NCBI GenBank assembly: GCA_046537975.1
Contig: JBKHJR010000002.1
Coordinates: 35,695 to 99,694 of the forward strand
Reading direction: 5' to 3'
Source: Desulfurivibrionaceae bacterium
GTDB taxonomy: Bacteria > Desulfobacterota > Desulfobulbia > Desulfobulbales > SURF-16
DNA: 64,000 nucleotides
Under the pieces are notes generated by a model. It made no database searches and had not been told where the DNA came from. It saw only the letters and a program-made list of their open reading frames with translations. This document shows positions 30,397-63,378 of the stretch, in pieces (position 1 is the first letter of the stretch; the number at the start of each line of letters is the position of its first letter). The position numbers and the translations under genes are program-made.

Positions 30397-30510
30397 CGGA
30401 GATCGGAAGTCGGAAGTTGGAAGTCGGAGATCAAAAGACAAAAGGAAGAAGACAGAGGTCAGACAACAGCAGCCTAAGTTTTTAATCTTGCACCTTGCAC
30501 CTTGAACCTT
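30397..30510 (+). repeat. Composite heptad element, copy A (dprA-topA spacer)
   Basis: Units in one register from 30397: CGGAGAT CGGAAGT CGGAAGT TGGAAGT CGGAGAT CAAAAGA CAAAAGG AAGAAGA CAGAGGT CAGACAA CAGCAGC CTAAGTT TTTAATC TTGCACC TTGCACC TTGAACC. It begins 10 nt after the dprA stop. It is the reverse-complement homolog of copy F. Confidence 0.9.
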
Positions 30511-30527
30511 AAGCCCTTAAAATATTT

Positions 30528-32795
30528 ATGTCCAAATCATTGATAATTGTCGAATCACCTGCCAAGGCCAGGACCCTCCAGAAATATCTGGGCAGCAGCT
30601 ACGAGGTAAAAGCCTCTGTCGGTCACATCCGTGATCTGCCCGGTAAAGAGATGGGGGTTGATATAGAACACGGTTTTCTGCCCCAATACACAACCATTCC
30701 CGGGAAGGGGAAGATTATTTCGGAAATGAAGAGTGCCGCCAAAAAGGCAGATGCCGTCTATCTGGCCCCTGACCCGGACCGCGAAGGTGAAGCGATCGCC
30801 TGGCATATAGCCGAGGCCATCAAATCCGCCCAGGGCAATATTCACCGGGTCCTTTTCCATGAACTTACCAAAAAGGCGATTATCTCCGCCCTAAATCAGG
30901 CCACGGAGATAGATCAGAATAAATTCGAGGCCCAACAGGCCAGGAGGATTCTGGATCGGCTGGTGGGCTACCAGATCTCCCCCCTCCTGTGGGACAAGGT
31001 GAGACGGGGGCTGAGTGCCGGAAGAGTTCAGTCGGTGGCAGTCCGCATGGTATGTGACCGGGAGCAGGAAATAGAATCGTTCCAGCCCGTGGAATACTGG
31101 TCCATAACCGCCGACCTCGAAGGAAGCAGCCCGCCGCCTTTTCAGGCTCAGCTGGAAAAGGTTGCAGGCAAAAAGGTTGATAAAAAAGACAACCGGATAG
31201 ACAGCGAAGAAACGGCCCAGAGGCTGACAGAGGAGATAAGGCAGGCGGAGATCAGGGTTGCTGAAGTAAATAAGAAGGAAAAGAAGCGCAACCCCCAGCC
31301 TCCGTTCATAACCAGTTCCATGCAGATAGAGGCCAGTAACCGGCTGCGCTTTTCCGCTAAAAAGACCATGACCCTGGCCCAGAAACTCTATGAAGGTGTG
31401 GAGATAGGTTCTGAGGGTCTCAGCGGCCTGATAACCTATATGAGGACCGATTCCACCAGGGTAAGCGACGAGGCCCTGAACCAGGCCCGGGATCAGATCC
31501 GCAAAACCTACGGTGATGACTACCTGCCGGCAAAACCCCGGAAATTCAAATCCAAGGATTCAGCCCAGGATGCCCATGAGGCCATACGGCCTACAGATGC
31601 CGGCCGCACTCCGGAAAAAATGGCTCCTTTTCTGGATAAGGATATGCATAAACTGTATACCCTTATCTGGCAGCGTTTCGTGGCCAGCCAGATGGCCCCG
31701 GCCGTGTTTGACCAGACCACCATCATCCTGGAGGCCGGGGAACACACCCTAAAGGCCGTGGGCAGCATACTGCGTTTTCCGGGCTACCTGAGCCTGTACC
31801 AGGATTCTGCCAAATCGGGCAGCGAGCAGGAAGAAAGCCTCCCCGATCTAAGCGAAGGCGAGCAGGTTGAATTGCTGAAACTGGAGCCCAGGCAGCATTT
31901 CACCCAGCCTCCGCCCCGCTATACCGAGGCCTCTCTGGTCAAGGCCCTGGAGGAGAACGGAGTGGGACGGCCCTCTACTTATGCTGCCATCCTCAGCACC
32001 ATCCAGGAAAAAGAGTATGTGGAGCTGCGGGAAAGAAAATTCTTCCCCACCGACCTCGGCAAGGTGGTTAACGATCTTCTGGTCCGTCATTTTCCGGAAA
32101 TCATGGATATCGATTTTACCGCTTCCATGGAGAGCAAGCTGGATGATGTGGAAGAGGGGGAGCTGGACTGGCAGGAACTGTTAAAAGTTTTTTATACCCC
32201 CTTTCGCCAGACCCTGGAAAAAGCCAAGGAGGAGATGGAGTCGGTCAAGGGCAAGTCCGTTCCCACGGACATCAAGTGTGAGGAATGCGGCGGGACCATG
32301 GTTATCAAGTGGGGAAAGATGGGGGAGTTCCTGGCCTGCGACCAGTATCCGGACTGCCGCAATACCTGTGATTTTGAGAGGGATCAGGAAGGCAGGATAA
32401 TTCCGAAAGAAAAGGAAAAGGAAGAAGAGTCAGAGGAGGTCTGTGAAAAGTGTGGCCGGCAGATGATTTACAAGAAAGGTCGTTACGGCCGGTTTCTGGC
32501 CTGTTCCGGCTATCCCGAGTGTAAAAATATCAGAGCGGAGGGAACCGGGGTCCAATGCCCGGAGGAAAACTGTCCGGGGGAATTAGTAAAAAAAGTTTCT
32601 AAAAAGGGAAAAATATTTTATGCCTGTAACCAGTATCCCAACTGCAGTTATGCCCTGTGGAACAAACCGGTAAATCAGGCCTGCCCGGAATGCGGCTCCC
32701 CGTATCTTATTGAAAAGGAAACCAAAAAACAGGGCCGCCATTTAAGGTGTCCCGACAAAAAATGCGGCTATACCAAAAAGCTGGACGAGGAATAA
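30528..32795 (+). CDS. topA: DNA topoisomerase I
   Basis: 755 aa. Toprim IVESPAKA, active-site region YMRTDS and C-terminal tandem CxxC zinc ribbons. Confidence 0.95.
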   Translation: MSKSLIIVESPAKARTLQKYLGSSYEVKASVGHIRDLPGKEMGVDIEHGFLPQYTTIPGKGKIISEMKSAAKKADAVYLAPDPDREGEAIAWHIAEAIKSAQGNIHRVLFHELTKKAIISALNQATEIDQNKFEAQQARRILDRLVGYQISPLLWDKVRRGLSAGRVQSVAVRMVCDREQEIESFQPVEYWSITADLEGSSPPPFQAQLEKVAGKKVDKKDNRIDSEETAQRLTEEIRQAEIRVAEVNKKEKKRNPQPPFITSSMQIEASNRLRFSAKKTMTLAQKLYEGVEIGSEGLSGLITYMRTDSTRVSDEALNQARDQIRKTYGDDYLPAKPRKFKSKDSAQDAHEAIRPTDAGRTPEKMAPFLDKDMHKLYTLIWQRFVASQMAPAVFDQTTIILEAGEHTLKAVGSILRFPGYLSLYQDSAKSGSEQEESLPDLSEGEQVELLKLEPRQHFTQPPPRYTEASLVKALEENGVGRPSTYAAILSTIQEKEYVELRERKFFPTDLGKVVNDLLVRHFPEIMDIDFTASMESKLDDVEEGELDWQELLKVFYTPFRQTLEKAKEEMESVKGKSVPTDIKCEECGGTMVIKWGKMGEFLACDQYPDCRNTCDFERDQEGRIIPKEKEKEEESEEVCEKCGRQMIYKKGRYGRFLACSGYPECKNIRAEGTGVQCPEENCPGELVKKVSKKGKIFYACNQYPNCSYALWNKPVNQACPECGSPYLIEKETKKQGRHLRCPDKKCGYTKKLDEE

Positions 32796-32801
32796 AAAAC
32801 G

Positions 32802-32817
32802 TGGCCCGGCATTTGCA
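32802..32817 (+). promoter_or_regulatory. Candidate sigma-54 (-24/-12) promoter
   Basis: TGGCCCGGCATTTGCA versus the consensus TGGCACG-N4-TTGCW. GG and GC have the correct 12-nt offset, with one mismatch in the -24 box. It sits 7 nt after the topA stop and about 225 nt upstream of ORF 33041. Confidence 0.5.
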
Positions 32818-33040
32818 AAGTTGTAAGCAGGACCAGTAATTTAAACCGGACCATAATGTTCCGGAGGTACGGTAACCAGTTGAAATTTTAAACGTTTCGC
32901 TTCACCCAGAACCACTAACAAACACTGTGCAATGTTCCTGAATATACATACCAACTGTAAGCATAATCTCTTACATGAAATTTGTCGGTTTTATCAAAAA
33001 GATAAATCAACCCGAAAAGTTCAGTAAAGGAGCTTGAGTT

Positions 33041-33394
33041 ATGATCTCCGGTGTAAGAAATTCCCTGTCGGCTCTCCAGGCTTTCCAGACCAGGCAGAAT
33101 GCGACTGCCGACAATGTCGCCAATGTGAATACAGAAGACTATAAAAAAACAGAGGTCACTCTGGATGGGGGGCAAAACGATTCGGTCCGGGTCCGTACCG
33201 AAAAAGTTGACACCCCGGGTCCCCTGGTCTCCGAAGAAACCGGCCGGGGCAGTGAGCTGGTGGAAAAGTCAAATGTGGAACTCAGCGAGGAACTGCCCGA
33301 GTCCATGTTGAATAAGCGGCATTTTGAGGCCAATGTCAAGATGATTGAGCAGGCCGACGAAATGACCGGGGCCCTGCTCGATATAGTCAGTTAG
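33041..33394 (+). CDS. Minimal flagellar axial-family (rod/hook D0-type) protein, orphan
   Basis: 117 aa. The N-terminal LSALQAFQTRQNATADNVANVNTEDYKK fits the Flg_bb_rod signature. The C-terminal SNVELSEELPESMLNKRHFEANVKMIEQADEMTGALLDI fits the rod/hook C-terminal helix. Good SD (AAAGGAG, 8 nt). No other flagellar gene is in the window. Confidence 0.6.
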   Translation: MISGVRNSLSALQAFQTRQNATADNVANVNTEDYKKTEVTLDGGQNDSVRVRTEKVDTPGPLVSEETGRGSELVEKSNVELSEELPESMLNKRHFEANVKMIEQADEMTGALLDIVS

Positions 33395-33404
33395 CAGCCG
33401 GGTG

Positions 33405-34697
33405 TTATCCTCTCGAGAACCTTATCTCCCCGTCCATTATGGTCAGAACCGCCCTGCCTTTCAGCTGCCGGCCCAGAAAAGGTGAGTTCCTGCTTTTGGA
33501 GACCACTTCCTCCGGCTGGTAGGTAAACTCCTGTTCAGGATCGATCACTGTTAAGTCCGCTACTGCCCCCTCCTCCAGCGAGCCTCCTTCCACCCCCAGA
33601 ACACGCGCAGGGTTGAGGGACATCAGCTCTACCATCCCGGCGGGAGTCAGGATTTTTTCCCTGACCAGGGCCAGAGCAAGAGGGACTGCGGTTTCAAGGC
33701 CTGTTATGCCGTTGGCCGCTTCCTCGAATTCCAGATCCTTTTCCAGGGTGCTGTGGGGGGCATGGTCAGAGGCAATCACATCGAGAGTTCCGTCTTCCAA
33801 GCCCCGGCGTACTGCCTCCCTGTCCCGGGAATTCCTCAGTGGTGGATTCATCTTGGCATTGGTATCGTACTGTCCCACCGCCTCTTCGCTCAAGGTGAAA
33901 TAGTGGGGGGCCGTTTCCGCTGTAACCCTGACCCCTCGTTCTTTTGCCCTTCTGATCAGGTCAACCGCTTCTCCGGTGGAAATATGGGCCAGGTGAATGG
34001 GCCGCTTCAGGTATTCGGCCAGGGCGAGATCCCGGTAGACCATAATGGTTTCCGCCACGGAAGGAATACCGCGCAGCCCCATCCTGGTCGAGATGGGGCC
34101 TTCATTCATGCCCCCGTTTTTACTGAGTGACGATTCTTCAGGATGGGAGATGACGAGCATGTCATAGTTTGCTCCATACTCAAGGGCCCGCCGCATAAAG
34201 AGGCTGCTGATCACTGGACGGCCGTCATCGGAAAAGGCAACAGCCCCCGCCTTCTTTAACTCCCCGAAAGGGGCCAGCGACTCTCCTTCACTGTTTTTGC
34301 TTACCGCCCCCACCGGGTAGACCCGGGCCGGACAGCCGGCGGCCTTGGTAAGGATCATCGAGGTCACCGTTTCCGAGTCATTGACCGGACGGGTATTGGG
34401 CATGCAGGCAACCGCTGTGAACCCTCCGGCAGCAGCGGCCCTGGTTCCGCTGGCTATGGTTTCCTTATACTCTTCACCGGGCTCCCGGAGATGGACGTGC
34501 ATATCTATAAGACCGGGAGTCAGCCATTTGCCCTCGATGTCAATATGTTGACATCCTTCCGGGGCTTCAAGAGACCCAGGGCTGGCGACCGCTTCAATCC
34601 TGCCATTGCTTACCAGTATCTCCCCTTTTTGATCCAGGTTGTTGCGGGGATCTATGATGCGGGCATTGCTAAGAAAAATTTTTTTACTATTTTTCAT
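33405..34697 (-). CDS. pyrC: Dihydroorotase
   Basis: 430 aa amidohydrolase with DMHVHLREPG and the later His/Asp ligands (SDHAPH). Confidence 0.9.
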   Translation of the reverse strand: MKNSKKIFLSNARIIDPRNNLDQKGEILVSNGRIEAVASPGSLEAPEGCQHIDIEGKWLTPGLIDMHVHLREPGEEYKETIASGTRAAAAGGFTAVACMPNTRPVNDSETVTSMILTKAAGCPARVYPVGAVSKNSEGESLAPFGELKKAGAVAFSDDGRPVISSLFMRRALEYGANYDMLVISHPEESSLSKNGGMNEGPISTRMGLRGIPSVAETIMVYRDLALAEYLKRPIHLAHISTGEAVDLIRRAKERGVRVTAETAPHYFTLSEEAVGQYDTNAKMNPPLRNSRDREAVRRGLEDGTLDVIASDHAPHSTLEKDLEFEEAANGITGLETAVPLALALVREKILTPAGMVELMSLNPARVLGVEGGSLEEGAVADLTVIDPEQEFTYQPEEVVSKSRNSPFLGRQLKGRAVLTIMDGEIRFSRG

Positions 34698-34715
34698 AAT
34701 AAGGTGTCCGGGTTT

Positions 34716-34728
34716 GAGAGATCAGAAT
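34716..34728 (-). promoter_or_regulatory. Leader motif UUCUGAUCUC about 25 nt upstream of the pyrC start
   Basis: The plus strand reads GAGAGATCAGAAT. The same GAGATCAGR string recurs at the same distance upstream of two other minus-strand starts (54591-54599; 56611-56619 and 56625-56633). Confidence 0.4.
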
Positions 34729-34772
34729 ATATCCTTTCAGGAATTGCCGCTAATTGTCCATTCTTTCCCCTG

Positions 34773-35732
34773 TCAGCCTTCTCCCCCTAAAGCATGGAAG
34801 AGAAGAGCCATTCGCACTGCCACCCCGTTTGTTACCTGATCCAGAATCACGGATCTGGGACCGTCCGCCAGTTCGGGGTCCAGTTCGACCCCCCGGTTTA
34901 CTGGTCCGGGGTGCATTATAATGGCGTCGGTTCTGGCACGCTCAAGCATTTTGTTGTTTAAGCCGAAAAAAGTGGCGTACTCGCGCCGAGAGGGGATCAG
35001 GGGGTCAAACTGCCTTTCCTGCTGAATTCGCAGCCCCATTACCACATCTGCATCTTCCACCGCCTCTTCAACCGAATAACAGACCTTGGCCCCTAATTCT
35101 TCCACTCCCCACGGCATAAAGGTCGCGGGACCGCTGACATATACTTCAGCACCCATTTTGTTGAATCCGAGAATATTGGAATGGGCTACCCGGCTATGGC
35201 CTATGTCTCCGATAATGGCAACTTTCAACCCTGATATGCTCTCCTTTTTCTCCTGCACTGTCATCAGGTCAAGCAGGGCTTGGGAGGGGTGCTCATGGCA
35301 GCCGTCTCCGGCATTAATGACGGCAGCTTTGGTGTGACGGGTGACAAGGAGAGGGGCGCCGGATCTGGCATGCCGGATAATAATGATGTCCGGATTCATG
35401 GCGTTGAGGTTTTTTACGGTATCTATCAGGGTCTCCCCTTTTACCGCACTGCTGCTGGAAGTGGAGATGTTAAAGGTATCTCCGCTCATTCTTTTGCCGG
35501 CAAGTTCAAAAGAGAGGCGGGTGCGGGTGCTCGGCTCAAAAAAAAGGTTGATTATTGTTTTGCCGCGCAGAGTTGGAACCTTTTTGATAGGGCGGCTGGA
35601 AATTTCTTTAAAGGATTGGGCGGTATTCAGTATGAAATCGATGTCTTCGGCAGACAGGTCTGCTATTCCCAGGATATGTTTATGGCGGAATTGATAATCA
35701 TTGTTCCGGGATTGAGAAACCATTTCAACCAT
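34773..35732 (-). CDS. pyrB: Aspartate carbamoyltransferase catalytic subunit
   Basis: 319 aa with [19 protein letters not shown] and HPGP motifs. No pyrI or pyrR is adjacent. Confidence 0.95.
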
Positions 35733-35756
35733 CCTGTAGTATTAATTGGGAGTTAA

Positions 35757-35912
35757 TACTTAGTGTCCCTCCAGGAAACGGCCCTTTTGCCCGATCTCTG
35801 TGTCACAGCAAAAATAAAAAATGCTCACACATACCCAATATGCTGCGCTTTTTTATTTTCACTGTTCCTTGACCTCGAACAAAAAATCTCGTTTCTGGAT
35901 GGACACTAAGTA
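35757..35912. repeat. 156-bp long imperfect palindrome in the pyrB upstream region (MITE-like or leader RNA structure)
   Basis: The outer arms TACTTAGTGTCCCTCCAGGAAACG (35757-35780) and CGTTTCTGGATGGACACTAAGTA (35890-35912) pair. The inner arms CAGCAAAAATAAAAAATGC (35806-35824) and GCGCTTTTTTATTTTCACTG (35845-35864) also pair. Between the two stems there is roughly a 25x25 nt unpaired interior. Confidence 0.7.
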
Positions 35913-36178
35913 GGATTATTATATCGCTTTTCTCCGGGCCTGAAAATCTGTAAATCAATCCGATCCGTAACCCTTATTCCATAACCCTTATTATATTGAT
36001 ATCTAAAAACTGCAATTAGTAATTGGCTGTTAGCGGTTAGCCGGGCAAATGACCTGATTAAGCCAATGGGTGACTGACTTGCAGTTTACCATACCTGAAG
36101 GTACGTTATGATAAGGTATCTGACTGAATATTCCATTCAGGAAATTTGTGAATCTCCTTAAATGGACTCTACCATGAT

Positions 36179-36210
36179 AATCAGCTGTTATCTTAAGAAA
36201 ACAGCTGATT
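36179..36210 (-). terminator. Hairpin just downstream of lepB (possible terminator, no clear U-tract)
   Basis: 11-bp perfect stem AATCAGCTGTT / AACAGCTGATT with a 10-nt loop, 8 nt from the lepB stop. Confidence 0.35.
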
Positions 36211-36217
36211 GCAATAT

Positions 36218-36832
36218 TTAATTAATAACATCTCCGATCCGGGACCATCTGGGGCTGAATTCCTCCCTGTCCCATGACCAGTAGAGGATAAAGGCCTTGC
36301 CCTTTAAGGCCTTGAAATTGACAAAGCCCCAGAATCTGCTGTCGTGACTGTTGTCACGATTGTCTCCCATGACGAAAAGGGAGTTTTCAGGGACCGTGGC
36401 CGGCCCGTAATTGTCCCGGGGGGACAGTTCGCCGGGAATAACCTGGGAGTCAAGATGGACAGCGGATTCCACCTTGAAGCGTTCGCCGTTGACATATACT
36501 TTTTTATCGACAATTTTAATCCGGTCTCCGGGGAGACCTATCACTCTTTTGATAAAATCCTTGGACGGATCCGGTGGATATTCAAAAACAACAATATCTT
36601 TCCGTTCCGGTTCCCCCACAGGAATCAGAACCGAATCGGTAACAGGATTTTTTATACCGTAAATAAATTTATTTACCAGAAGATGGTCGCCGATCTTAAG
36701 TGTAGGCAGCATAGAACCTGAAGGTATTTTAAAAGCCTGAACCACAAAAGTTCTGATGAAAAGAGCCAGAATAAGGGCAATTATGATAGCTTCTGCGTAT
36801 TCCCTTATCGTTGATTTTTTCTTTTTTGACAA
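36218..36832 (-). CDS. lepB: Signal peptidase I
   Basis: 204 aa. Catalytic Ser box IPSGSMLPTL, Lys box, and GDNRDNSHDSRFWG. Confidence 0.9.
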   Translation of the reverse strand: MSKKKKSTIREYAEAIIIALILALFIRTFVVQAFKIPSGSMLPTLKIGDHLLVNKFIYGIKNPVTDSVLIPVGEPERKDIVVFEYPPDPSKDFIKRVIGLPGDRIKIVDKKVYVNGERFKVESAVHLDSQVIPGELSPRDNYGPATVPENSLFVMGDNRDNSHDSRFWGFVNFKALKGKAFILYWSWDREEFSPRWSRIGDVIN

Positions 36833-37127
36833 GGATAACTCCTTTGGTATGAATGTTGCTTTCTGTTCCTGGTAAAGAGTTTTCTATTTTTAAACCATAA
36901 ATGATTATTAAACAAGCAAATTTCACACATCGGCAGTAGAAGGCGAGGATGATTTAAAAAAGCTTAATCCGGCACCGGTGCGCAGGAGGCAGGCTTGTGA
37001 TCATCCGGTCAGCATGTTTGCGGAAAACGGTCATGCCCAATATGTTGTAGTTGTAAAAAGGTGATACCCCCTAAATATCGGACAAGTTTAAATTCAAGAT
37101 TTTTGAATTATTTTTTTGCAAAAAAAT

Positions 37128-37156
37128 TAGACAGTTATCCTTTTGTTGGTTATAAT
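37128..37156 (+). promoter_or_regulatory. Sigma-70-type promoter upstream of pilM
   Basis: TAGACA (37128-37133), exactly 17 nt of spacer, then perfect TATAAT (37151-37156). It sits in a very A/T-rich tract about 75 nt upstream of the pilM ATG. Confidence 0.5.
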
Positions 37157-37229
37157 CGGAATCAATAAAAAATTTAACTAAAAAAAATAGAGCTATTAAA
37201 ATTATATATCTTATAAAAAAGTCCTGAAA

Positions 37230-38297: not shown

Positions 38298-38360
38298 CAG
38301 TGGCAGGTGGACAGGGTAAACTGAGGACCAAAAACTCTTAATTCTGAACTAATAATAGAG

Positions 38361-38927
38361 ATGATATATATTAATCTGTTACCGATAAGAGATATGCAGA
38401 AGAAGGCCCGGACCCGGAAAGGGGTCTGTATGTTTTTTTTATCTCTGGTCGGTGTAGCAGCTGTATTGTTAGTGATTACTGCCGCTCTTAACAGTCGTAT
38501 AACTGGTCTGGATCAAAATATTGATGATCTCAGGGCTGAGAAACAGAAGTATAATAAGATCCTGCAGGAAATAGAAAAAATAAAAAAAGACAAAAAGAAA
38601 CTGATGACCAAAATCAAGGCCATCAAGACCCTGAAAAGCAGGTCCCAGGTTCCGGTCCGCCTGGTGGATACTGTTGCCAGGGCGGTTTCAAGTCCGGAGG
38701 ACAGCCTGTGGTTGAAGAGCTTCAAGCAGAACGGCGACACTCTTTCCCTGAGCGGGGCTGCCATGGATAATTCCAGGCTTGCCAGATTCATGGATGATCT
38801 CGACGCCTCTCCTCATTTTCAGCAAGTCAACCTTGGCCAGTCTTCCATGACTGAAGTGGCGGGGCGTCATTTGAAATCCTTCAAGCTTACTCTGAAAATA
38901 AACACTGATCTCCTGGCCAACCAGTAA
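38361..38927 (+). CDS. pilN: Type IV pilus assembly protein PilN
   Basis: 188 aa. N-terminal INLLPIR motif, single TM, coiled coil, and its position after pilM. Confidence 0.8.
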   Translation: MIYINLLPIRDMQKKARTRKGVCMFFLSLVGVAAVLLVITAALNSRITGLDQNIDDLRAEKQKYNKILQEIEKIKKDKKKLMTKIKAIKTLKSRSQVPVRLVDTVARAVSSPEDSLWLKSFKQNGDTLSLSGAAMDNSRLARFMDDLDASPHFQQVNLGQSSMTEVAGRHLKSFKLTLKINTDLLANQ

Positions 38928-38990
38928 AAAGGTAAAAAGAATGGATATATTCGCCACTTACCTTACCATAACCTACTGGAGGTACGGTAA

Positions 38991-39623: not shown

Positions 39624-39710
39624 ATTTAATCGGTGTTTAAGCCCTAACAAGTTTAAAGGTTAAATTATGGATAAATTTCGCAGCATTAAGCCTAAATCAA
39701 AATCACAGTC

Positions 39711-40271: not shown

Positions 40272-40273
40272 TA

Positions 40274-42145: not shown

Positions 42146-42221
42146 GCAGTGTTTATAACGAGGGAAACTACCTTATATTTGGGGCATTATATTTTTAAAT
42201 TTTAATCGGGGTAGCAAGAGA

Positions 42222-43868: not shown

Positions 43869-43875
43869 GACCGGC

Positions 43876-47367: not shown

Positions 47368-47458
47368 CAAGGTGCAAGGTGCAAGGTTTTTTAAATCTAC
47401 GGCTTAGCCCTCTGCCCTCTGATCTCCGCCCTCCGACTTCCGCCCTCCGACCTCAGTC
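47368..47458 (-). repeat. Composite heptad element, copy B (rsmB-uvrA spacer)
   Basis: Plus-strand units in one register: CAAGGTG CAAGGTG CAAGGTT TTTTAAA TCTACGG CTTAGCC CTCTGCC CTCTGAT CTCCGCC CTCCGAC TTCCGCC CTCCGAC CTCAGTC. The last unit overlaps the rsmB stop codon. It fills almost the whole 98-bp spacer. Confidence 0.9.
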
Positions 47459-48802: not shown

Positions 48803-48876
48803 GATTGGTATTCTTTGTAGTGAAATTATTATGGCTCATCCGGATAATAAGTATCTGAATCCGGGTGATTCAATGT

Positions 48877-48932
48877 CTCTGATCTCCGACCTCCGACCTC
48901 TGACCTCCGACCTCTGACTTCCGATCTCCGAC
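48877..48932 (-). repeat. Heptad array, copy C (pgeF-rsmB spacer)
   Basis: Eight plus-strand units: CTCTGAT CTCCGAC CTCCGAC CTCTGAC CTCCGAC CTCTGAC TTCCGAT CTCCGAC. In the gene sense this reads GUCGGAG-type units starting 6 nt after the pgeF stop. Confidence 0.9.
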
Positions 48933-48937
48933 CGGGG

Positions 48938-49785: not shown

Positions 49786-49834
49786 GAAAAAAAGAAAAAA
49801 GGACAACCTCCATACCGGAGATTGTCCTTTTCTT
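49786..49834 (-). terminator. Intrinsic terminator downstream of the 49919 outer-membrane gene (bidirectional in form)
   Basis: 12-bp stem AGGACAACCTCC / GGAGATTGTCCT (one mismatch) with loop ATACC. On the minus strand it is followed by UUUUUUCUUUUUUU. Confidence 0.8.
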
Positions 49835-52893: not shown

Positions 52894-52896
52894 TAC

Positions 52897-54567: not shown

Positions 54568-54576
54568 TGGAGTCCA

Positions 54577-54604
54577 AAGGTCGGGGTTCAGAGATCAGAG
54601 GCGC
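54577..54604 (+). repeat. Short degenerate heptad array, copy D (spacer before the zinc-knuckle gene)
   Basis: AAGGTCG GGGTTCA GAGATCA GAGGCGC on the plus strand. In the gene sense it reads ...CUCUGAUCUCUGAACCCCGACCUU 10 nt before the ATG. Confidence 0.5.
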
Positions 54605-54624
54605 AATACAGTATCGGTCCACTC

Positions 54625-55773: not shown

Positions 55774-55793
55774 AAGAGTAATCCTTACGATTT

Positions 55794-56600
55794 TCAGGAA
55801 AAATTTTTATCAGATGATCCGTTGTTGCTTTCCATCTGAAGAAGCCGGATGTTCTGAGCCTCATACCTGTCTGAATCACGGTTATTGGGGGCTATCTGAA
55901 ATTCAAAAATATTAGAGGGGTTGTGAAAGACCTGTGGTGAGCTTTCAAAGGGAGATTGGGAACAATGGAAAAAAAGACTGTCACTTTCCAGTCCCAGGGC
56001 GGTCAATCTGTAATAACGCATAAATCCAAAGCCCCGATCCGGCTTATAGCTGATCACTGTGCCCCGGTACCATTCTCTGGGATCATGATCACCCTGAATC
56101 GGTAAAAGGCCGGGAACCAGGAAGCCGGAAATAAAGAAATCGGCGGTCTCTCTTAAACTCGAGCTGACATTATTGAAACCGATGACCTCAACCCGGCAAC
56201 CTCTGTTCTGGATGGCCGTTACCAGACGGATAAAGTCTCCATCCCCGGTTACCAGGATAATCCGGTCGAGGTTGCGGGACTGGAGGAGGGCGTCAATGGC
56301 CAGGTCCATATCAGCGTTGGCTTTGGTGGTAACAACCCCCTCTTCATCAACATAATGCTGAACATATTTTTTAATGACCTTAAAACCGTGATTACGGACG
56401 ATGTTATGGTAATTATGAACCTTCTGCCGGTATTCGCCATCGTTTTCAGTCCTTTCCCGGTCTTCAGCCAGATAGGAGTTGGCCCTTAAGAGCTGCGAGT
56501 TCCCTCCATTGGCCAGATCAACCAGGACATCATAACGCATGCCGTATCCTCCGCTTAGCCGGATGTTTTCTGCGTCAACGTATATACCGGTTTTAAACAT
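55794..56600 (-). CDS. NYN/LabA-like ribonuclease domain fused to a cold-shock (CSD/OB) domain
   Basis: 268 aa. NYN motifs GIYVDAENI, ADMDLAIDAL and ILVTGDGDFIRLV. The C-terminal YRGTVISYKPDRGFGFM...LFFHCSQ...FEFQI matches the cold-shock domain pattern. Confidence 0.8.
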   Translation of the reverse strand: MFKTGIYVDAENIRLSGGYGMRYDVLVDLANGGNSQLLRANSYLAEDRERTENDGEYRQKVHNYHNIVRNHGFKVIKKYVQHYVDEEGVVTTKANADMDLAIDALLQSRNLDRIILVTGDGDFIRLVTAIQNRGCRVEVIGFNNVSSSLRETADFFISGFLVPGLLPIQGDHDPREWYRGTVISYKPDRGFGFMRYYRLTALGLESDSLFFHCSQSPFESSPQVFHNPSNIFEFQIAPNNRDSDRYEAQNIRLLQMESNNGSSDKNFS

Positions 56601-56605
56601 AAGAG

Positions 56606-56633
56606 TTCGGAGATCAGGAGTCGGAGATCAGAA
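56606..56633 (+). repeat. Heptad array, copy E1 (5' leader of the NYN-CSD gene, C/U-rich in the gene sense)
   Basis: TTCGGAG ATCAGGA GTCGGAG ATCAGAA on the plus strand (a 14-nt unit twice). It lies 6-33 nt upstream of the minus-strand ATG at 56600. Confidence 0.8.
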
Positions 56634-56646
56634 TGTCGTTGTGCCT

Positions 56647-56676
56647 AATATATTTGCAATCTTGAGCAATGTCCAA
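56647..56676 (-). promoter_or_regulatory. Candidate sigma-70 promoter for the NYN-CSD / receiver-TPR / zinc-knuckle genes
   Basis: Minus strand: TTGGAC (56676-56671), 18 nt of spacer, then TATATT (56652-56647). The predicted leader of about 40 nt consists of array E1. Confidence 0.4.
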
Positions 56677-56784
56677 GGAAGATTCGGTTTTATTGTTTTC
56701 TCCATTGCAGTCAGTCAGCTAAACAATAAGCTCTTTAGCCGAGTTGATCTGCATACTTTTTCCCGCTGAATTGCCGGCCTTGCC

Positions 56785-56833
56785 CTCTGTCCTCAGACTT
56801 CAGACTTCAGACTTCAGACTTTAGACCTCTGCC
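56785..56833 (-). repeat. Heptad array, copy E2 (immediately downstream of guaA)
   Basis: Plus-strand units CTCTGTC CTCAGAC TTCAGAC TTCAGAC TTCAGAC TTTAGAC CTCTGCC. In the gene sense these are GUCUGAA/GUCUGAG units starting about 14 nt after the guaA stop. Confidence 0.9.
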
Positions 56834-56846
56834 CCCGCCCACTGAA

Positions 56847-58397
56847 TCACTCCCATTCAATGGTCCCGGGAGGTTTGGAGGAAATGTCGTAGACCACCCG
56901 GTTTACCCCCTTCACTTCATTTATCAGGCGGTTCGAAATGCGGCCCATCAGCTCGTAAGGCAGCTTGGACCAGTCTGCAGTCATGGCATCAACGCTGTCT
57001 ACGGAGCGCAGGGCGATTACGTGTTCATAGGTCCGCTCATCCCCCATAACACCAACGGTCTGAATGGGCAAAAGCACGGCAAAGGACTGCCATACCTTGT
57101 AATAGTAGCCTGAACTCTTCATCTCGTCCAGTATAATAGTATCAGCCTGTCTCAGGATTTCAAGGCGTTCCCCGGTAACCTCTCCCATTATTCTTATCGC
57201 CAGTCCGGGACCGGGAAAAGGCTGGCGGTAAATGGCTTCCTTAGGCAGTTCCAGGGTGAGACCGAGTTCCCGGACTTCATCCTTGAACAGTTCCCGCAGG
57301 GGTTCAATAAGATCGAGCTTCATAATCTCTGGCAATCCCCCCACATTATGATGGGATTTAATGGCTGCCGCTCCCCGGAAGGACACGGATTCAATGACAT
57401 CCGGATAAAGGGTGCCCTGGGCCAGGAATTTGACGTCTCCCAGTTTGACAGCCTCTTTTTCAAAGATCTTTATGAAGCCCTGACCGATTATCCTCCGTTT
57501 TTCTTCGGGATCCCTTATGCCCTGGAGCTGGTCAAGAAAATAATCGACAGCATCGACCTCAATCACCCGGAGATGCTCCTGTTCCTTGAAAAAGCGCATA
57601 AGCCTCTTTGTTTCTCCGGCACGCATCAGACCGTTATTCACATAGATGCAGGTCAACTGGTCGCCTACAGCCCGGTGCACCAGGGCGGCGGTTACCGAGG
57701 AATCGACTCCGCCGGAAAGAGCGCAGATTACTTTATTATCACCGACTTTTTCCTTGATGGCGGCCACCGTGGTATCCACAAAGGATTCCATGGTCCATGC
57801 CGGCCGGCAGTTGCAGATATTAAAGATAAAGTTGGCCAGCACATCATTGCCGATAAGGGTATGAGCGACCTCCGGGTGGAACTGCACGCCAAACAGGGGC
57901 TTTTCCTGGTGACGGACCGCGGCCAGGGGGCTGTGTTCACTCCGGGCTGCGGCCTGGAATCCGGCGGGGGCCCGGTCAATCCTGTCGCCATGGCTCATCC
58001 AGACCTGATAGCGGGGCGAACCGGTAGCCAGGTCGGCAAATAAGCCGTCGGTGCGGAGGATCTCCAGGTCCGCCTTGCCGTATTCCCTTTTCGCGGCCCC
58101 GGCCACAGCACCGCCTAATTGGTGCATCATTAACTGGGCTCCGTAGCAGATGCCAAGCACGGGAATACCCAGATCCAGAAGATCGGGGTCGGTCATCGGG
58201 GCATCTTCGTCATAGACGCTGGCCGGGCCACCGGACAGAACTATGCCTGAAGGCTTCATCTTCTTGAGTTCGTCAAGGGACAGGGTGTAGGGATGGATCT
58301 CACTGTAGACCCTCTGTTCCCTGATCCGCCTGGCTATGAGCTGGGTGGTCTGGGAACCGAAATCAAGGACAATTATTTTTTCCTGATGTATATCCAT
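56847..58397 (-). CDS. guaA: GMP synthase (glutamine-hydrolysing)
   Basis: The start is set at ATG 58397 ([20 protein letters not shown]...), which matches the usual GuaA N-terminus. The track start (TTG 58409) lies inside the heptad array. GATase and ATP-PPase (SGGVDSSV) domains, C-terminus TIEWE. Confidence 0.95.
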
Positions 58398-58400
58398 GGA

Positions 58401-58558
58401 CAGTTTCAAGTTTCAAGTTTCAAGTTTCAAGTTTCAAGGCACAAGGCACAAGGTACAAGGTATAAGGTGCAAGATTAAAGGCTTAGGCTGCTGTTGTCTG
58501 ACCTCTGTCTTCTGTCTTTTGACCTCCGACCTCCGACCTCCGACCTCCGACTTCCGGG
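58401..58558 (-). repeat. Composite heptad element, copy F: fills the whole guaB-guaA spacer
   Basis: 22 consecutive plus-strand units in a single register from 58407: CAAGTTT x4, CAAGGCA x2, CAAGGTA x2, TAAGGTG, CAAGATT, AAAGGCT, TAGGCTG, CTGTTGT, CTGACCT, CTGTCTT x2, TTGACCT, CCGACCT x3, CCGACTT, CCGGGGC. It ends 2 nt before the guaB stop. Confidence 0.95.
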
Positions 58559-58560
58559 GC

Positions 58561-60021
58561 TCAGCTCATTCGGTAATTGGGCGCCTCTTTGGTGATTATT
58601 ACGTCATGGACGTGGCTTTCTTTGAAGCCGGCCGGGCTGATCTTGACAAATCTGGCTTTTTCCTGGAGTTCCGCAATGCTCCGGGCCCCCAGATAACCCA
58701 TGCCGGACCGCAGACCTCCGGTGAGCTGGTAGATGGTATCACTTAAAGGGCCGCGATAGGGAACCTTGCCTTCAATGCCCTCAGGAACGAATTTTGCCGC
58801 AGATTCCACATCCGCCTGGCTGTAACGGTCTGCACTCCCCTCTTTCATGGCTCCCAGTGATCCCATGCCCCGGTAGCCTTTGTAGGTTCTCCCCTGATAG
58901 AGAAAGGTCTCACCGGGAGTTTCTTCACAACCGGCCAGAAGACTGCCTATCATTATGGAATCCGCCCCTATGCCTATGGCCTTGCTCAAGTCGCCGGACT
59001 GCTTTATCCCGCCGTCGCTGATCACGGGGATTCCGTGTTTCCGGGCCGCGGTGCTGCAATCACTGATAGCCGTAAGCTGAGGGACGCCGACACCGGCCAC
59101 GATCCTGGTTGTGCAGATAGAGCCGGGTCCAACTCCAAGCTTGAGGGCGTCGGCTCCGGCCCTGATCAGATCTTCGGCAGCCTCGGCAGTGGCAATATTG
59201 CCGGCAATTACCTGAAGGCCGGAAAAATCCGCCTTGATTTTTTTCAGGGCATTAACGATATTGCTGGAATGACCATGGGCTGAATCCAGGACCAGAACAT
59301 CGACGCCGGCGGCCTGTAGGTTGTCGACATGCTCCAGGGAGATGTCTGCCCCTATGGCAGCTCCGGCCAGGAGTCTGCCCAGGGAGTCTTTGGCGGCCAG
59401 GGGGTATTTCCTGATCTTTTCCAGATCCTTGATGGTGATAAGGCCGTGCAGGCTGCCGTCCTCGTTGACCACCAGCAGCTTTTCAATCCGGTGCTCATGC
59501 AGCAGGGCCTTGGACTGCTCCAGAGTGATACCGGGCTTGGCGGTAACCAGATTCTTGCTGGTCATGACATCCTTGACCTTAAGCCCCAGGTCGGAAACAA
59601 AGCGCATATCACGGTTGGTGACGATTCCGGCCAGTTTGCCGTCCCTCAGCACGGGAACACCGGAGATATGAAAGGTCTGCATAATCTTTTCAATCTCGCC
59701 CACAGTCTGGTCTTCCTCGGCGGTGACCGGATCCACAATCATACCGGATTCGGATTTTTTGACTTTCTCCACCTCAAGCAGCTGTTTTTTCAGGCTCATG
59801 TTCTTATGTATTATCCCTATCCCTCCTTCGCGGGCCATGGCAATAGCAGTCCGGTGTTCGGTTACCGTGTCCATGGCTGCACTGATCAGGGGCATGTTAA
59901 GGGAAATTTCCCTGGTCAATCTGGTTGAGAGATCCACCTCGGAAGGAAGTACGGATGACTTCCTGGGTACCAGGAGAATGTCGTCAAAAGTGAAGGCCTC
60001 ATTTATATTTTCCGGTAGCAT
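58561..60021 (-). CDS. guaB: IMP dehydrogenase
   Basis: 486 aa TIM barrel with a CBS pair and the catalytic loop [11 protein letters not shown]. Confidence 0.97.
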
Positions 60022-60023
60022 AG

Positions 60024-61808
60024 TTATTCCTTCCAGTCAGGACGTAGTTTTAATTCTGTAAGTTGCTTGCGGTTGACCGGGGCCGGGGCTTCGGTCATGG
60101 GACAGGTGGCTTTCTGGGTTTTGGGGAAGGCGATTACATCCCTGATAGTTTCCCTGCCGGTAAGAATCATCAGCAGCCGGTCCAGGCCGAAGGCAATCCC
60201 ACCGTGGGGCGGTGCTCCGAGTTCCAGGGCCCGCAGCAGAAAGCCGAATTTATCCTCGGCTTCTTCCCGGCTGATGCCCAGAGCCTCGAAGGCCCTGTCC
60301 TGGATATCTTTTTGATGGATACGCAGACTGCCGCCCCCTATTTCCGTGCCGTTTAAAACCAGGTCATAGGCCCGGCTTCTGACTCGGCCCGGATCGGATT
60401 CCAGCAGATCCAGATCTTCCTCCCGGGGTGCGGTGAAGGGATGATGGACCGCAGTGTGGCGGCGTTCTTCATGATCATATTCCAGCAGAGGAAAGTCTGT
60501 TATCCACAGGAAGTTGAGGGTGTTTCCGTCCAGCAGTTCAAGCCTGCGGGCCAGCTCAAGCCTGAGTTCAGCCAGGGCCTCGTGGACAACCGGACTCTTG
60601 TCAGCCACAAAGAACAGGAGATCTCCTTCTGCCGCCTCCAGGTCTTCGCTTATCCTGCCCCGTTCTTCCGGAGTGAAAAATTTGGCAATTGGTGACTGCC
60701 ACTCGCCTTCAGGCTTCACCTTGACCCAGGCCAGTCCTTTGGCCCCGTACTGGCCGGCGAATTCGGTCAGGTCGTCCAGGTCCTTGCGGGAGAAATCGGC
60801 ACAGCCTTTGGCGTTGATGCTCTTCACTATGCCGCCGGTTTCCACTACATTTTGAAAGACCTGGAAGCTGCAGTCCCTGACCGTTTCGGTCAGATCGACC
60901 AGCTCCATGCCGAAGCGGGTGTCGGGCCGGTCCGTACCGAATCTGGCCACGGCTTCATCATAGGTCAGGCGGGGAAAGGGCGGTTTCAGGTCCCTGTTTC
61001 TGGTTTCTTTGAAAATTGCCTGCATTATCCCTTCGGACAGGGTAAAGATATCTTCTTCATTAATAAAGGAAAGCTCCATGTCCAGCTGGGTGAATTCGGG
61101 CTGGCGGTCGGCCCGCAGATCCTCGTCCCGGAAACACTTGACTATCTGATAGTAGCGGTCCATACCTGCGGCCATCAGCAGCTGCTTAAAGAGCTGGGGG
61201 GACTGGGGCAGGGCGAAGAAGCGGCCGGTATTAACCCGGCTGGGTACCAGGTAGTCCCTGGCCCCTTCAGGAGTGGAGCGGGTGAGCACCGGGGTCTCGA
61301 TTTCCAGAAAATCAGCATCGTTCAAGTAGCTGCGGATGGCCTGGCAGGCTTTGTGCCGGGTTATGAGGTTGTCAGCCATTCCCGGGCGGCGCAGGTCGAT
61401 ATAACGATAGGCAAGCCGGAGGTTGTCGGAGACCTCCACTTCCTCGTCCAGGGGGAAGGGCGGGGTTTTGCTGGTATTGAGTATCTTCAGTTCATCGGCA
61501 AAGACCTCTATTTCTCCGGTAACCAGCTTTTCATTGATCATTCCTTCCGGCCGGCGGGCGACTTTTCCCCGCACTGCAATCACCCATTCACTCCGCAGGG
61601 TGTGGGCCTTGGCATGGACCTCGGAATTGTGCTCCGGATTGAATACCACCTGAGTGATACCCCAGCGGTCCCGCAGGTCAATAAATATAACACCCCCGTG
61701 ATCCCGTCTTCTCAGTACCCAGCCCATCAGGACGATTTCCCGGTCAAGATTGGCCGCATTCAGTTCATTGCAGCTATGACTACGTTGCAGCGTTCCCATG
61801 GATTCCAT
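60024..61808 (-). CDS. aspS: Aspartate--tRNA ligase
   Basis: 594 aa class IIb synthetase. OB anticodon-binding N-domain, motif 2 [18 protein letters not shown], motif 3 GIAFGLDRL. Confidence 0.97.
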
Positions 61809-61820
61809 AGGATCTCCTAT

Positions 61821-61884
61821 TAAGGTTCAAGTTTCAAGTTTCGGGGTGCGGTATGATGGTTTGTCTGACACCTCTTGCTCTTAG
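61821..61884 (-). repeat. Short/degenerate heptad element, copy G (hisS-aspS spacer)
   Basis: TAAGGTT CAAGTTT CAAGTTT, then GGTTTGTCTGACACCTCTTGCTCTT, which resembles the copy F middle TGTTGTCTGACCTCTGTCTTCT. It lacks the CTCCGAC array. The aspS start keeps a normal SD (AGGAG). Confidence 0.6.
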
Positions 61885-61889
61885 AATTG

Positions 61890-63176
61890 TTATAATATTT
61901 CAAATTTTTCCCCTCCTACCGCCTCCATGATATCATCTCCCCATTCCGCCGGATCGCTTTTTATGGCCAGCGCTGCCTGGTCCCTGGTTCTCATGTCCCG
62001 AAGCCGGGCCTCCCCCTTTTCAAACTCTTCTTCTCCCACGATCAGGACAAAATCGGCTTTGGCCCGGTCAGCCTGTTTCATCTGGCTTTTTAAACTGCGG
62101 TCCATGACATCCATGGCCACAGCCAGTCCTTTTTCCCTTAAGTAATAGGTCACCGGGAAGGCCATGTCCTGGGCTTTAGGGCCGAGAGCGGCTATAAAAA
62201 GGTCGGTCCTGGTTTTTCCGGGCCGGGAATCCTTTTCAGACAGGAGGAGGGCCAGACGTTCAATCCCCATGGCAAAACCCAGTCCCGGGACATCCGGTCC
62301 CCCCAGCTCCCCGACCAGGCCGTCATAACGCCCCCCGGCTCCCACCGCACTCTGGGCTCCCAGGTCGTCGGTTATAAGTTCAAATGTGGTACGGCAGTAA
62401 TAGTCCAGGCCCCTGACCATGAAGGAGTTGACAGTATAGGGAATTCTCAGGAGGCTGAGACTTTCTTCAACCGCCCGGAAGTGGTCGGAGCATTCCGGGC
62501 AGAGATGCTGGATTATCAATGGCGCCTGTCGATACTGTTCCCGGCAGTTTTCATTTTTGCAGTCCAGAACACGGAGGGGATTGTAATCCCTGCGCCTTTC
62601 GCAGTCGTCACAGATGGAATCACATTGGTTCAGAAACTGCCGCAGGGCCCGATTAAATTCCGGCCGGCATTCCGGGCATCCCAAGGAATTTATCTCCAGT
62701 CTGGCACTCAGGTCGAGGCTGGTGAGCAGATACCAGGACATGGCCATCACTTCCGCATCTATCCGGGGATGATCAAGGCCGACAGCCTCGACACTGATCT
62801 GGTGAAATTGTCGCAGGCGGCCTTTCTGGGGTCTTTCATGCCGGAACATGGGGCCGATAGTATAAAGCTTCTGCAACGGTTTTGCCGTGTACAGCCCCTG
62901 TTCGATGTAGGCCCGCAGAACCGAGGCGGTCCCTTCCGGCCTCATGGTGACCGAGTCCCCGTTGCGGTCGCTGAAGGTGTACATCTCCTTTTCCACGATA
63001 TCGGTGGCCGCCCCCAGAGAACGGACAAAGAGATCGGTCTTCTCCAGAATCGGGACCCTTATTTCCCGGAATTCAAAACGGCGGAAAATATCCCTGGCAG
63101 TTTCTTCGATAAAACGATATATGTCCACCTCATCCGGGACGATGTCTTTAAATCCCTTTAAGGCCTTAACTTTCAC
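61890..63176 (-). CDS. hisS: Histidine--tRNA ligase
   Basis: 428 aa class IIa synthetase. Motif 2 FRHERPQKGRLRQFHQ, motif 3 GGGRYDGL, and a C-terminal anticodon-binding domain. Confidence 0.95.
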   Translation of the reverse strand: MKVKALKGFKDIVPDEVDIYRFIEETARDIFRRFEFREIRVPILEKTDLFVRSLGAATDIVEKEMYTFSDRNGDSVTMRPEGTASVLRAYIEQGLYTAKPLQKLYTIGPMFRHERPQKGRLRQFHQISVEAVGLDHPRIDAEVMAMSWYLLTSLDLSARLEINSLGCPECRPEFNRALRQFLNQCDSICDDCERRRDYNPLRVLDCKNENCREQYRQAPLIIQHLCPECSDHFRAVEESLSLLRIPYTVNSFMVRGLDYYCRTTFELITDDLGAQSAVGAGGRYDGLVGELGGPDVPGLGFAMGIERLALLLSEKDSRPGKTRTDLFIAALGPKAQDMAFPVTYYLREKGLAVAMDVMDRSLKSQMKQADRAKADFVLIVGEEEFEKGEARLRDMRTRDQAALAIKSDPAEWGDDIMEAVGGEKFEIL

Positions 63177-63315
63177 GAATCCTCCATCATTAAGTTGTAT
63201 TTAAAATAAATCTGATTAAAATAGCCTGTTCCGGGGGGCAAGTCAAGGGAATGATATATGATGAATTTTGAATTGTGATTCAGTAATTGAAGGAAATTGC
63301 CCGATCAGTTACTTT

Positions 63316-63378
63316 GAGGTCAGAGGTCAGAGGTCAGAGGTCAGAGGTTCATAACTTGTAACTCACAACTAATATACT
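63316..63378 (+). repeat. Heptad array, copy H (serS 5' leader), in register with the start codon
   Basis: GAGGTCA x4, GAGGTTC, ATAACTT, GTAACTC, ACAACTA, ATATACT, then ATG at 63379: nine units exactly. Confidence 0.9.

Follow-up and report, generated by a model that had tools for sequence, protein, structure and literature searches.

Register-locked heptanucleotide arrays and a composite element at operon junctions of a Desulfurivibrionaceae bacterium

The stretch of DNA analysed here, referred to as the window, comprises 64,000 nucleotides (64 kb) of a Desulfurivibrionaceae bacterium (GenBank assembly GCA_046537975.1, contig JBKHJR010000002.1, positions 35,695 to 99,694 of the forward strand). 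It carries housekeeping genes with tandem arrays of 7-nt units in several of their spacers, and these heptanucleotide (heptad) arrays, together with a composite element that some of them form, are our subject. NCBIfam confirms dprA, topA, uvrA, rsmB, pgeF, guaB, guaA and serS, and also hisS and aspS, so the gene names given in an earlier sequence-only reading of this DNA were right. Each site at which that reading had reported 7-nt units proved to hold them at the same coordinates, both by Tandem Repeats Finder, which found a period-7 array at all of them, and on reading the sequence itself.

The 7-nt period is exclusive. A self-match scan of the whole window, made at two stringencies (18 of 21 and 12 of 14 matches) with shuffled sequence as the control, returned at the higher stringency seven runs of period 7 (302 nt) and six of period 14, with no run at periods 4-6, 8-13 or 15 and none in the shuffles; at 12 of 14 matches there were ten period-7 runs versus 0-2 for any other period. 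The autocorrelation check proposed by the earlier reading, run on the window, thus leaves only period 7 and its multiple 14 with long runs. All ten period-7 runs are intergenic, though 89.8% of the window is coding, and they fall in eight spacers, seven of which lie between co-directional genes while the eighth is the serS leader. The arrays are not an assembly artefact: short-read contigs assembled independently for this organism carry identical array sequences and are broken inside them; exact look-ups of the window proteins matched only short Logan contigs that end in arrays. The observation of a heptanucleotide repeat family is true and statistically solid. Logan assemblies were also seen to split housekeeping operons at heptad arrays into contigs of 1.7-6 kb (L121, L122 and L125; P0121, 1713 nt), and array copy numbers in short-read assemblies of this kind should not be trusted.

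In three spacers the arrays are composite, and we call these copies elements A, B and C (units are given in mRNA sense):

30398-30432, plus strand: element A, 5' module, dprA-topA spacer; GGAGATC GGAAGTC GGAAGTT GGAAGTC GGAGATC, beginning 10 nt past the dprA stop
30433-30486, plus strand: element A, centre; degenerate in-register heptads, AAAAGAC ... AGAGGTC AGACAAC AGCAGCC TAAGTTT TTTAAT
30487-30514, plus strand: element A, 3' module; CTTGCAC CTTGCAC CTTGAAC CTTAAGC, stopping 13 nt short of the topA ATG
58521-58556, minus strand: element B, 5' module, guaB-guaA spacer; GGAAGTC and four GGAGGTC, beginning 6 nt past the guaB stop
58474-58520, minus strand: element B, centre, homologous to that of A; CAAAAGA CAGAAGA CAGAGGT CAGACAA CAGCAGC CTAAGCC TTTAATC
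58402-58473, minus strand: element B, 3' modules; CCTTGNN-type units (TTGCACC TTATACC TTGTACC, two TTGTGCC), then five GAAACTT
47407-47455, minus strand: element C, 5' module, rsmB-uvrA spacer; TGAGGTC GGAGGGC GGAAGTC GGAGGGC GGAGATC AGAGGGC AGAGGGC, with the rsmB stop inside the first unit
47368-47388, minus strand: element C, 3' module; an A-run, then three CCTTGCA that stop 13 nt short of the uvrA ATG

The guaB-guaA spacer (163 nt) reads from stop to start as 24 consecutive heptads in one register, with graded drift of the unit, its five GAAACTT ending 4 nt before the guaA ATG at 58397. The dprA-topA spacer follows the same plan with about 20 heptads in register, and the claim that the register is never broken in the long copies thus stands for both. 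Elements A and B, 28 kb apart and on opposite strands, have in common a centre of ~65 nt at >90% identity and so are copies of a single dispersed composite rather than the outcome of two separate slippage events; element C is a shorter third copy, consisting of the G-rich array, CTAAGCC, the A-run and three CCTTGCA. The composite, with the order RGARRTC, degenerate centre, CCTTGNN and GAAACNN, exists as homologous copies at unrelated loci. A metagenome scan for a 22-nt piece of the centre of A and B gave zero matches, which makes this centre specific to the present genome. Neither A nor B has terminal inverted repeats or a visible target-site duplication, comparison with the empty sites of relatives revealed no such duplication, and no transposase or reverse-transcriptase gene stands beside any copy examined.

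The remaining arrays of the window are partial or short:

48877-48933, minus strand: G-rich array alone, pgeF-rsmB spacer; eight RGARRTC units, beginning ~5 nt past the pgeF stop
56785-56833, minus strand: G-rich array after guaA; AGAGGTC TAAAGTC, three TGAAGTC, TGAGGAC AGAGGGC, 15 nt past the guaA stop
56606-56633, plus strand: short array before the NYN-domain gene; G-rich on the plus strand, GATCTCC-type C-rich units in the mRNA of this minus-strand gene, 5 nt before its start
54577-54604, plus strand: short degenerate array; G-rich on the plus strand, C-rich in the mRNA, 9 nt before the start of a 556-aa gene
61821-61843, minus strand: hisS-aspS spacer array; GAAACTT GAAACTT GAACCTT, followed by a Shine-Dalgarno (SD) sequence (AGGAG) and the aspS ATG
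63316-63378, plus strand: serS leader; five GAGGTCA, AACTTGT AACTCAC AACTAAT, then the ATG
5827-5847, plus strand: trkA-nudix spacer array; CCTGAAA CCTGAAA ACTGAAC, 5 nt before the ATG

At dprA, rsmB, pgeF, guaB and guaA the distance from the stop to the G-rich array is 0-15 nt, and the claim to this effect was borne out at all five. A stronger statement, that order and polarity are always the same, is correct for the six arrays of at least four G-rich units, all of which are in sense orientation, and wrong for the two short arrays at 54577-54604 and 56606-56633, which are antisense. Nor do the arrays always fill their spacers, as had been supposed: between the array and the rsmB TTG, the 135-nt pgeF-rsmB spacer holds ~74 nt of ordinary, non-repeat sequence. 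The arrays at 56606-56633 and 56785-56833 form an inverted pair ~150 nt apart, which closes the 246-nt guaA-NYN spacer in the predicted fold. Between these two arrays lies the best promoter-like match of a 20-kb scan (56647-56675, minus strand, 10 of 12 positions), and the NYN-domain gene may have a predicted promoter of its own. A 14-codon open reading frame (ORF; LNHPDSDTYYPDEP) at 48829-48873 on the minus strand has its TTG start 9 nt past the final GGAGAT unit in the array of the pgeF-rsmB spacer; chance probably explains it, though it is the sole site with a heptad at SD distance from a start.

No terminator-like site was found in the heptad spacers of the window, which makes read-through probable, and the spacers are probably co-transcribed within their operons. 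A strong intrinsic-terminator-like hairpin (18 pairs and a T-run) stands upstream of pgeF at 49795-49833 on the minus strand. The layout suggests that pgeF, rsmB and uvrA form one putative transcription unit holding two heptad spacers. Replication-linked orientation was considered and rejected, as arrays change strand together with the genes over distances of 1.5-5 kb (hisS, aspS and guaB versus serS), with no reversal of GC skew.

Comparison with orthologous junctions, proposed in the earlier reading, revealed presence or absence of arrays and turnover of their units between close relatives. In a syntenic contig with GuaA 91% identical (L123), the guaB-guaA spacer is 91 nt long and contains a centre-like stretch and two CTGAACC units with no G-rich array, the hisS-aspS and guaA-NYN spacers have no arrays, and the serS leader carries (CTTACAG)13 in place of the (GAGGTCA)5 of the window. 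In a contig with GuaA 79% identical (L126), 8 nt separate guaB from guaA and 45 nt rsmB from uvrA, and pgeF overlaps rsmB; no heptad run occurs in its 21.5 kb, the hisS-aspS array also being absent. The guaA gene of this contig starts 8 nt past the guaB stop and has no SD. In the relatives without arrays the junctions are thus 8-45 nt long or made of overlapping genes, with the same SD-less starts. In a third contig (L135), with RsmB 67% identical, a G-rich array stands at the orthologous site (L135:1368-1425), as an in-frame extension of the rsmB 3' end, so that RsmB has 465 aa versus 449, with 19 extra codons directly past the conserved C-terminus FFAARLV; eight CCTTGNN units precede uvrA in the same place as in the window. 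As the window array starts within the last two rsmB codons, the two cases together place the beginning of an array precisely at the point where constraint on the protein stops. The arrays are assembled and change length by whole heptads, their units drift without loss of register, and they are confined to non-coding spacers. Judging from these junctions, they are lineage-specific insertions or expansions into what appear to be ancestrally tight junctions, labile in unit and copy number, and they are present across a Desulfobulbales clade of very different G+C content.

Composites of this plan are not confined to the window. A scan of metagenomes with a pattern of a G-rich pair, 40-70 nt and CCTTGYRCCTTG gave four real matches, three of them from one soda-lake sediment; a further hit (L133) was rejected as a chance match by its look, having no heptad run. 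The order in the soda-lake composites is G-rich units, a T- or A-run, CCTTGNN, then CGGAAAC, CCTGAAC or CCGTCTC units, and one lies in sense between gltX and fur while another is antisense between two confirmed co-directional genes. The CCTGAAC unit, the start-proximal module of one soda-lake element (L130), is of the same type as the trkA-nudix array of the window. One soda-lake contig (L131) holds two composites, at 4444-4689 and 2980-3186, with the common core GGAAGRTGGAATTGTCT; outer arrays of GGTGAAA and TTTCACC enclose one of them, and the other is antisense between glcD-like and DAO genes, beside a sense (TGAGGTC)5 with a stop codon in its first unit. In L130, six heptad runs with five different units occur in 4.6 kb.

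The stop-proximal unit type is far more widespread. One genome per species was scanned for 3.4 units of RGARRTC, which returned at least 120 loci versus ~4 chance matches expected by our own arithmetic; the survey counts given here and below are among the matches listed. The hosts belong to >15 phyla and include Verrucomicrobiota, Planctomycetota, Acidobacteriota, Bacteroidota, Cyanobacteria, several Desulfobacterota, Chloroflexota, Actinomycetota, Firmicutes, Proteobacteria and others, even a metagenome-assembled genome of Pacearchaeota, and the unit takes the forms AGAAGTC, AGAGGTC, GGAGGTC and GGAAGTC. Orientation was counted with a crude home-made ORF caller that is unreliable at high GC (the call for L134 was wrong and was corrected with Pfam), and array-masked ORF calling was used for the counts, since the stop-free G-rich arrays otherwise get absorbed into ORFs and bias the orientation. 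The 5' end of the purine strand is nearer to its 5' neighbouring ORF, whatever the orientation of that ORF, in 54 cases versus 19 (p = 5e-5; median distances 8 nt versus 145 nt). Where a complementary partner lies no more than 300 nt away, the G-array precedes it, whichever strand is read, in 13 distinct pairs versus 0 (L005, L011, L024, L040, L058, L070, L078, L082, L104-L107 and L120), a pattern that head-to-head joining of two 3'-extended ends, or a mobile element with terminal inverted repeats, would produce. Single arrays without a complement are common (117 of 134).

Other features of the survey are less clear-cut. The proposal that orientation relative to genes be tabulated, carried across phyla, yielded a mild sense excess in co-directional spacers (39 versus 21 antisense); given the unreliable caller this is weak evidence, and the excess is largely gone once ambiguous in-ORF cases are left out. 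No purity gradient indicative of directional growth was found between the first and last thirds of 51 arrays (18 versus 22, p = 0.08). Among other heptad arrays of the surveyed loci, 23 have 6 of 7 purines versus 9.6 expected, a moderate enrichment with many exceptions, and purine asymmetry was rejected as a general rule. According to the same ORF caller, some RGARRTC arrays appear to lie in sense inside long ORFs, e.g. in Lentisphaeraceae and Pontiellaceae contigs (L009, L031, L039-L041, L047, L062, L066, L094-L096 and L099); given a tract length divisible by 3, these would encode short peptide repeats of 7 residues.

Several published families are close to the window arrays. In Xanthomonas and Nostoc, the GGGAATC and GGGGA(C/T)T heptads (Rehm et al. 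2015) are mostly found between aligned ORFs, nearer to the 5' neighbour whatever the orientation, with the G-rich strand just past a stop and the complement just before a start; they are over-represented in non-coding DNA, mostly transcribed and highly variable between close relatives, inverted copies occur, there is no association with mobile elements, and their function is unknown (PMC4692102). Such GGGNATC heptads also form G-quadruplexes (G4) in vitro (PMC4692102). The window arrays, like them, are tandem R5Y2 7-nt units in non-coding DNA between aligned ORFs, and the positional features are reproduced in the window, where five G-rich arrays stand 0-15 nt past stops and two lie 5-9 nt from a start on the non-coding strand, as well as in the cross-phyla sample, which extends to many phyla the ORF-abutting rule derived from three genomes. 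The differences lie in the units (GGAGGTC, GGAAGTC, AGAGGTC), which offer only GG doublets in arrays of 3-8 units and no three-tier G4, as opposed to at least three G per unit and a preference for four units; in the Desulfobulbales host; and in the fact that the G-rich array is here the first module of a longer composite of fixed order. We take the Nostoc unit to be the STRR1 heptamer in another register. STRR repeats are heptanucleotide tandem arrays in many intergenic regions of heterocystous cyanobacteria, with the units CCCCAGT, TTGGTCA or CAACAGT. The window arrays share with these, and with the long simple sequence repeats (LSSRs), exact head-to-tail 7-nt units beyond chance, dispersal over many, mostly non-coding loci (10 runs in 8 spacers of 64 kb), and variation of copy number and unit between close relatives (L123, L126). 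They are not STRRs in the strict sense, the host being a member of the Desulfurivibrionaceae and the units GGAGGTC, CTTGCAC and GAAACTT, and they depart from the STRR definition in their ordered, register-locked composite architecture with a centre common to copies.

The other end of the composite also has a published counterpart. TAACTGA repeats of marine Beggiatoaceae, some Cyanobacteria and Bacteroidetes form mostly intergenic sets of 2-6 units, 147 of 170 of which point at a start codon, the gap to it being a few nt in most cases and a ribosome-binding site usually absent; some sets overlap the end of the upstream ORF, no pattern in downstream gene functions was seen, and S1, Csp or CsrA have been suggested as readers (MacGregor 2015, PMC4679880). 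The window contains no TAACTGA tandem, and it is in position that its GAAACTT, CCTGAAA and AACTNNN modules before guaA, aspS, nudix and serS are alike: they run forward, end 4 nt (guaA) or 5 nt (nudix) before the start or continue up to the ATG (serS), and SD is absent from these three genes, the aspS copy keeping one. In contrast to TAACTGA, the start-proximal units of the window are the tail of a composite whose G-rich head lies at the upstream stop. Heptamers are, in the account of Mrazek et al. 2007 given in PMC4679880, the commonest class of long simple sequence repeats in environmental bacteria rich in such repeats, and polymerase slippage over a 7-nt contact is the origin proposed there. 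The closest relative with a published description is Geobacter metallireducens, also a former deltaproteobacterium, in which 16 class 3 global regulator binding sites consist of five tandem MTYCTGA units in inverted pairs, are multicopy and intergenic (e.g. between proB and proA), and have been proposed to bind global regulators of the IHF/HU type (Aklujkar et al. 2009, PMC2700814). MTYCTGA is the reverse complement of TCAGRAK, that is, of AGAAGTC or AGAGGTC in another register, so the unit type matches; only 56606-56833 has an inverted pair in the window, where the other sites are single arrays or composites, and neither the CCTTGNN/GAAACNN composite nor the stop/start rule is reported for any class 3 site.

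No bacterial paper turned up when the literature was searched for the exact unit strings. The impression that the system was undescribed is accurate for this order of bacteria and too strong beyond it, given the close matches already published (PMC4692102, PMC4679880, PMC2700814). Heptanucleotide microsatellites of this kind are known, and their occurrence in the Desulfurivibrionaceae lineage is new; also new is the union of two separately known types, G-rich near the stop and A+U-rich near the start, as the ends of a single register-locked composite that is copied between operon junctions.

Folding of the sense spacers, with minimum free energies compared with those of dinucleotide shuffles, gave z = +1.8, +2.0 and +0.4 for the three composite spacers, which thus fold no better than shuffles and in two cases more weakly. 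In the predicted guaB-guaA fold, 5-bp helices and 2x2 internal loops nevertheless alternate as a regular ladder, as the sequence-only reading had foreseen when it offered a long hairpin as one explanation; this idea fails for the three composite spacers, for which reason it was rejected as a general explanation, and is marginally supported for guaA-NYN only, in which the 5' G-array pairs with the 3' C-array (z = -1.8, 10 of 200 shuffles folding as well). With G4 terms switched on, the GGAGGUC arrays are predicted to form two-tier G4, and the energy of the pgeF-rsmB spacer drops from -26.5 to -33.4 kcal/mol, the gain being small in all spacers but one. The only Rfam match in the window at the gathering threshold is a tRNA-Ser (17719-17804), with none on the heptad arrays. 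Elements A, B and C do not qualify as palindromic elements of the REP, BIME or MITE type, as they fold no better than shuffles and their arms are not complementary.

We consider it probable, with some room for doubt, that the arrays arise by slippage in 7-nt steps, spread by recombination or an unknown mobilisation, and are confined by selection to transcribed spacers in a tolerated arrangement. Array origin would lie in slipped-strand mispairing with a 7-nt step, and spread between spacers in recombination, in gene conversion between arrays or in mobilisation of an unknown kind, while selection would tolerate arrays only where they are harmless, in transcribed and untranslated operon spacers. 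The arrangement would be that of other bacterial heptads, with the purine-rich strand setting out from where the upstream ORF ends and with units rich in pyrimidine or A+U ahead of the next start. Arrays would lengthen tight ancestral junctions and be co-transcribed with them; they may modulate the downstream gene and would not be needed for it, and the likeness of GGAGGTC to SD would most likely be a by-product of the purine-rich R5Y2 unit type. This is close to the suggestion of a selfish, STRR-like microsatellite made in the earlier reading, the one of its four readings that the data bear out, through the exclusive 7-nt period, in-register drift, turnover in relatives, dispersed copies and occurrence in many phyla.

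Several observations weigh against this explanation. Slippage alone accounts neither for homologous composites at unrelated loci nor for the ORF-abutting rule (54 versus 19) and the G-first pairs (13 versus 0), and all six of the window arrays with at least four G-rich units are in sense orientation. Some polar process or selection is at work behind the polarity of the arrays. The rsmB-uvrA composite, moreover, is kept at 67% RsmB identity and so could have been retained for function.

An unlikely alternative is that the arrays are cis-acting platforms on the mRNA, the G-rich units holding terminating or standby ribosomes or binding CsrA and the A+U-rich units recruiting an S1- or cold-shock-type protein, which together would set SD-less translation. 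All long G-rich arrays are in sense and start 0-15 nt past stops, the spacers are probably transcribed within operons, having no terminator-like site, and the composites, judging from their predicted folding, would be accessible single strands. GAAACTT, CCTGAAA and AACTNNN end 4-18 nt before starts, a placement that resembles that of the TAACTGA repeats, whose proposed roles are the same (PMC4679880), and in Nostoc recO the deletion of heptamer repeats altered reporter output (bioRxiv 10.1101/2022.06.06.494920). Against this, the array-free relatives share the SD-less starts with spacers of 8-45 nt, arrays are gained, lost or swapped for unrelated units at the same site, and the cross-phyla sense bias is modest and due mostly to ambiguous in-ORF cases. 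The sequence-only reading was correct that topA, uvrA, guaA and serS have no SD within 15 nt of their starts, but this is unremarkable, as a core (GGAG, GAGG or AGGA at -18 to -4) is present in only 18 of the 53 window genes and absent from 35; SD-less initiation seems, from these counts, to be the rule in this organism. The G-rich units do not supply the SD of the downstream gene, which would need a core ~4-15 nt upstream of the start: they end 95 nt from the start of topA, ~120 nt from guaA, ~50 nt from uvrA, ~74 nt from rsmB and, as the exception to their being much too far upstream, 28 nt from serS. The idea that they act as an SD standby platform rescuing SD-less starts is thus without support, though not disproved, because array-free relatives have the same SD-less starts behind much shorter spacers, most window genes lack SD, and the G-rich units stand 28-120 nt from the starts. 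The SD-like look is not a general reason for the unit either, since RGARRTC arrays abound in Bacteroidota and Cyanobacteria, and phyla that seldom rely on SD carry these units as well. As for a CsrA-binding leader or sponge, which would present GGA in hairpin loops, GGA recurs every 7 nt in the arrays, but the predicted folds do not put it in loops, and no csrA-like ORF was found in the 64-kb window.

Rather improbable, in our view, is action at the DNA level, with the arrays being tandem sites for a nucleoid-associated or regulatory protein, or the ends of a foldback- or MITE-like element whose dedicated enzyme fixes the polarity. The unit skeleton GA-NN-TC-N, as deduced from the sequences, is the same on both strands, three units make 21 bp or two helical turns, the G-first inverted pairs (13 versus 0) are what terminal inverted repeats would give, and homologous composites are dispersed both in the window (A and B) and in the soda-lake contig L131 (the two copies with the core GGAAGRTGGAATTGTCT); IHF/HU-type binders have also been proposed for the paired sites of five MTYCTGA units in G. 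metallireducens (PMC2700814). This is opposed by the lack of terminal inverted repeats or a visible target-site duplication in A and B, by the lack of a transposase or reverse-transcriptase gene beside any copy examined, and by the earlier finding of no mobile-element association (Rehm et al., PMC4692102), while the many unrelated heptad units per genome speak against one sequence-specific binder.

Quite improbable is a further possibility, that RGARRTC arrays are the product or target of a dedicated and widespread polar process, either 7-nt-step synthesis at DNA 3' ends or a protein or RNA machine that reads heptads. If true, it would explain the ORF-end rule, the one-way inverted pairs and the composites copied between operon spacers, and telomere-like break healing at 3' ends would yield exactly the G-array-first inverted pairs observed. 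A role of nucleic-acid structure, be it a long imperfect hairpin that brings stop near start or two-tier GGAGG G4 in RNA or the non-template DNA strand, is very improbable: the helix ladder of guaB-guaA, the guaA-NYN pairing, the predicted G4 gain of pgeF-rsmB, the G4 formed in vitro by GGGNATC (PMC4692102) and the many perfect inverted pairs in other phyla are outweighed by the z values of the composite spacers, by GG doublets that would make any G4 a weak two-tier one, and by the frequency of single arrays without a complement.

Heptanucleotide arrays are the commonest long microsatellites of free-living bacteria, and to our knowledge their period of 7, their polarity and their function have remained without explanation for >30 years. 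The window adds a clean case from a new lineage, the Desulfurivibrionaceae. The finding has a practical side, in that arrays break short-read assemblies of the clade at housekeeping operons. Junctions before and after array gain are also at hand, with guaB-guaA at 8 versus 163 nt and pgeF-rsmB overlapping versus separated by 135 nt, which makes the effect of the arrays on operon expression directly testable.

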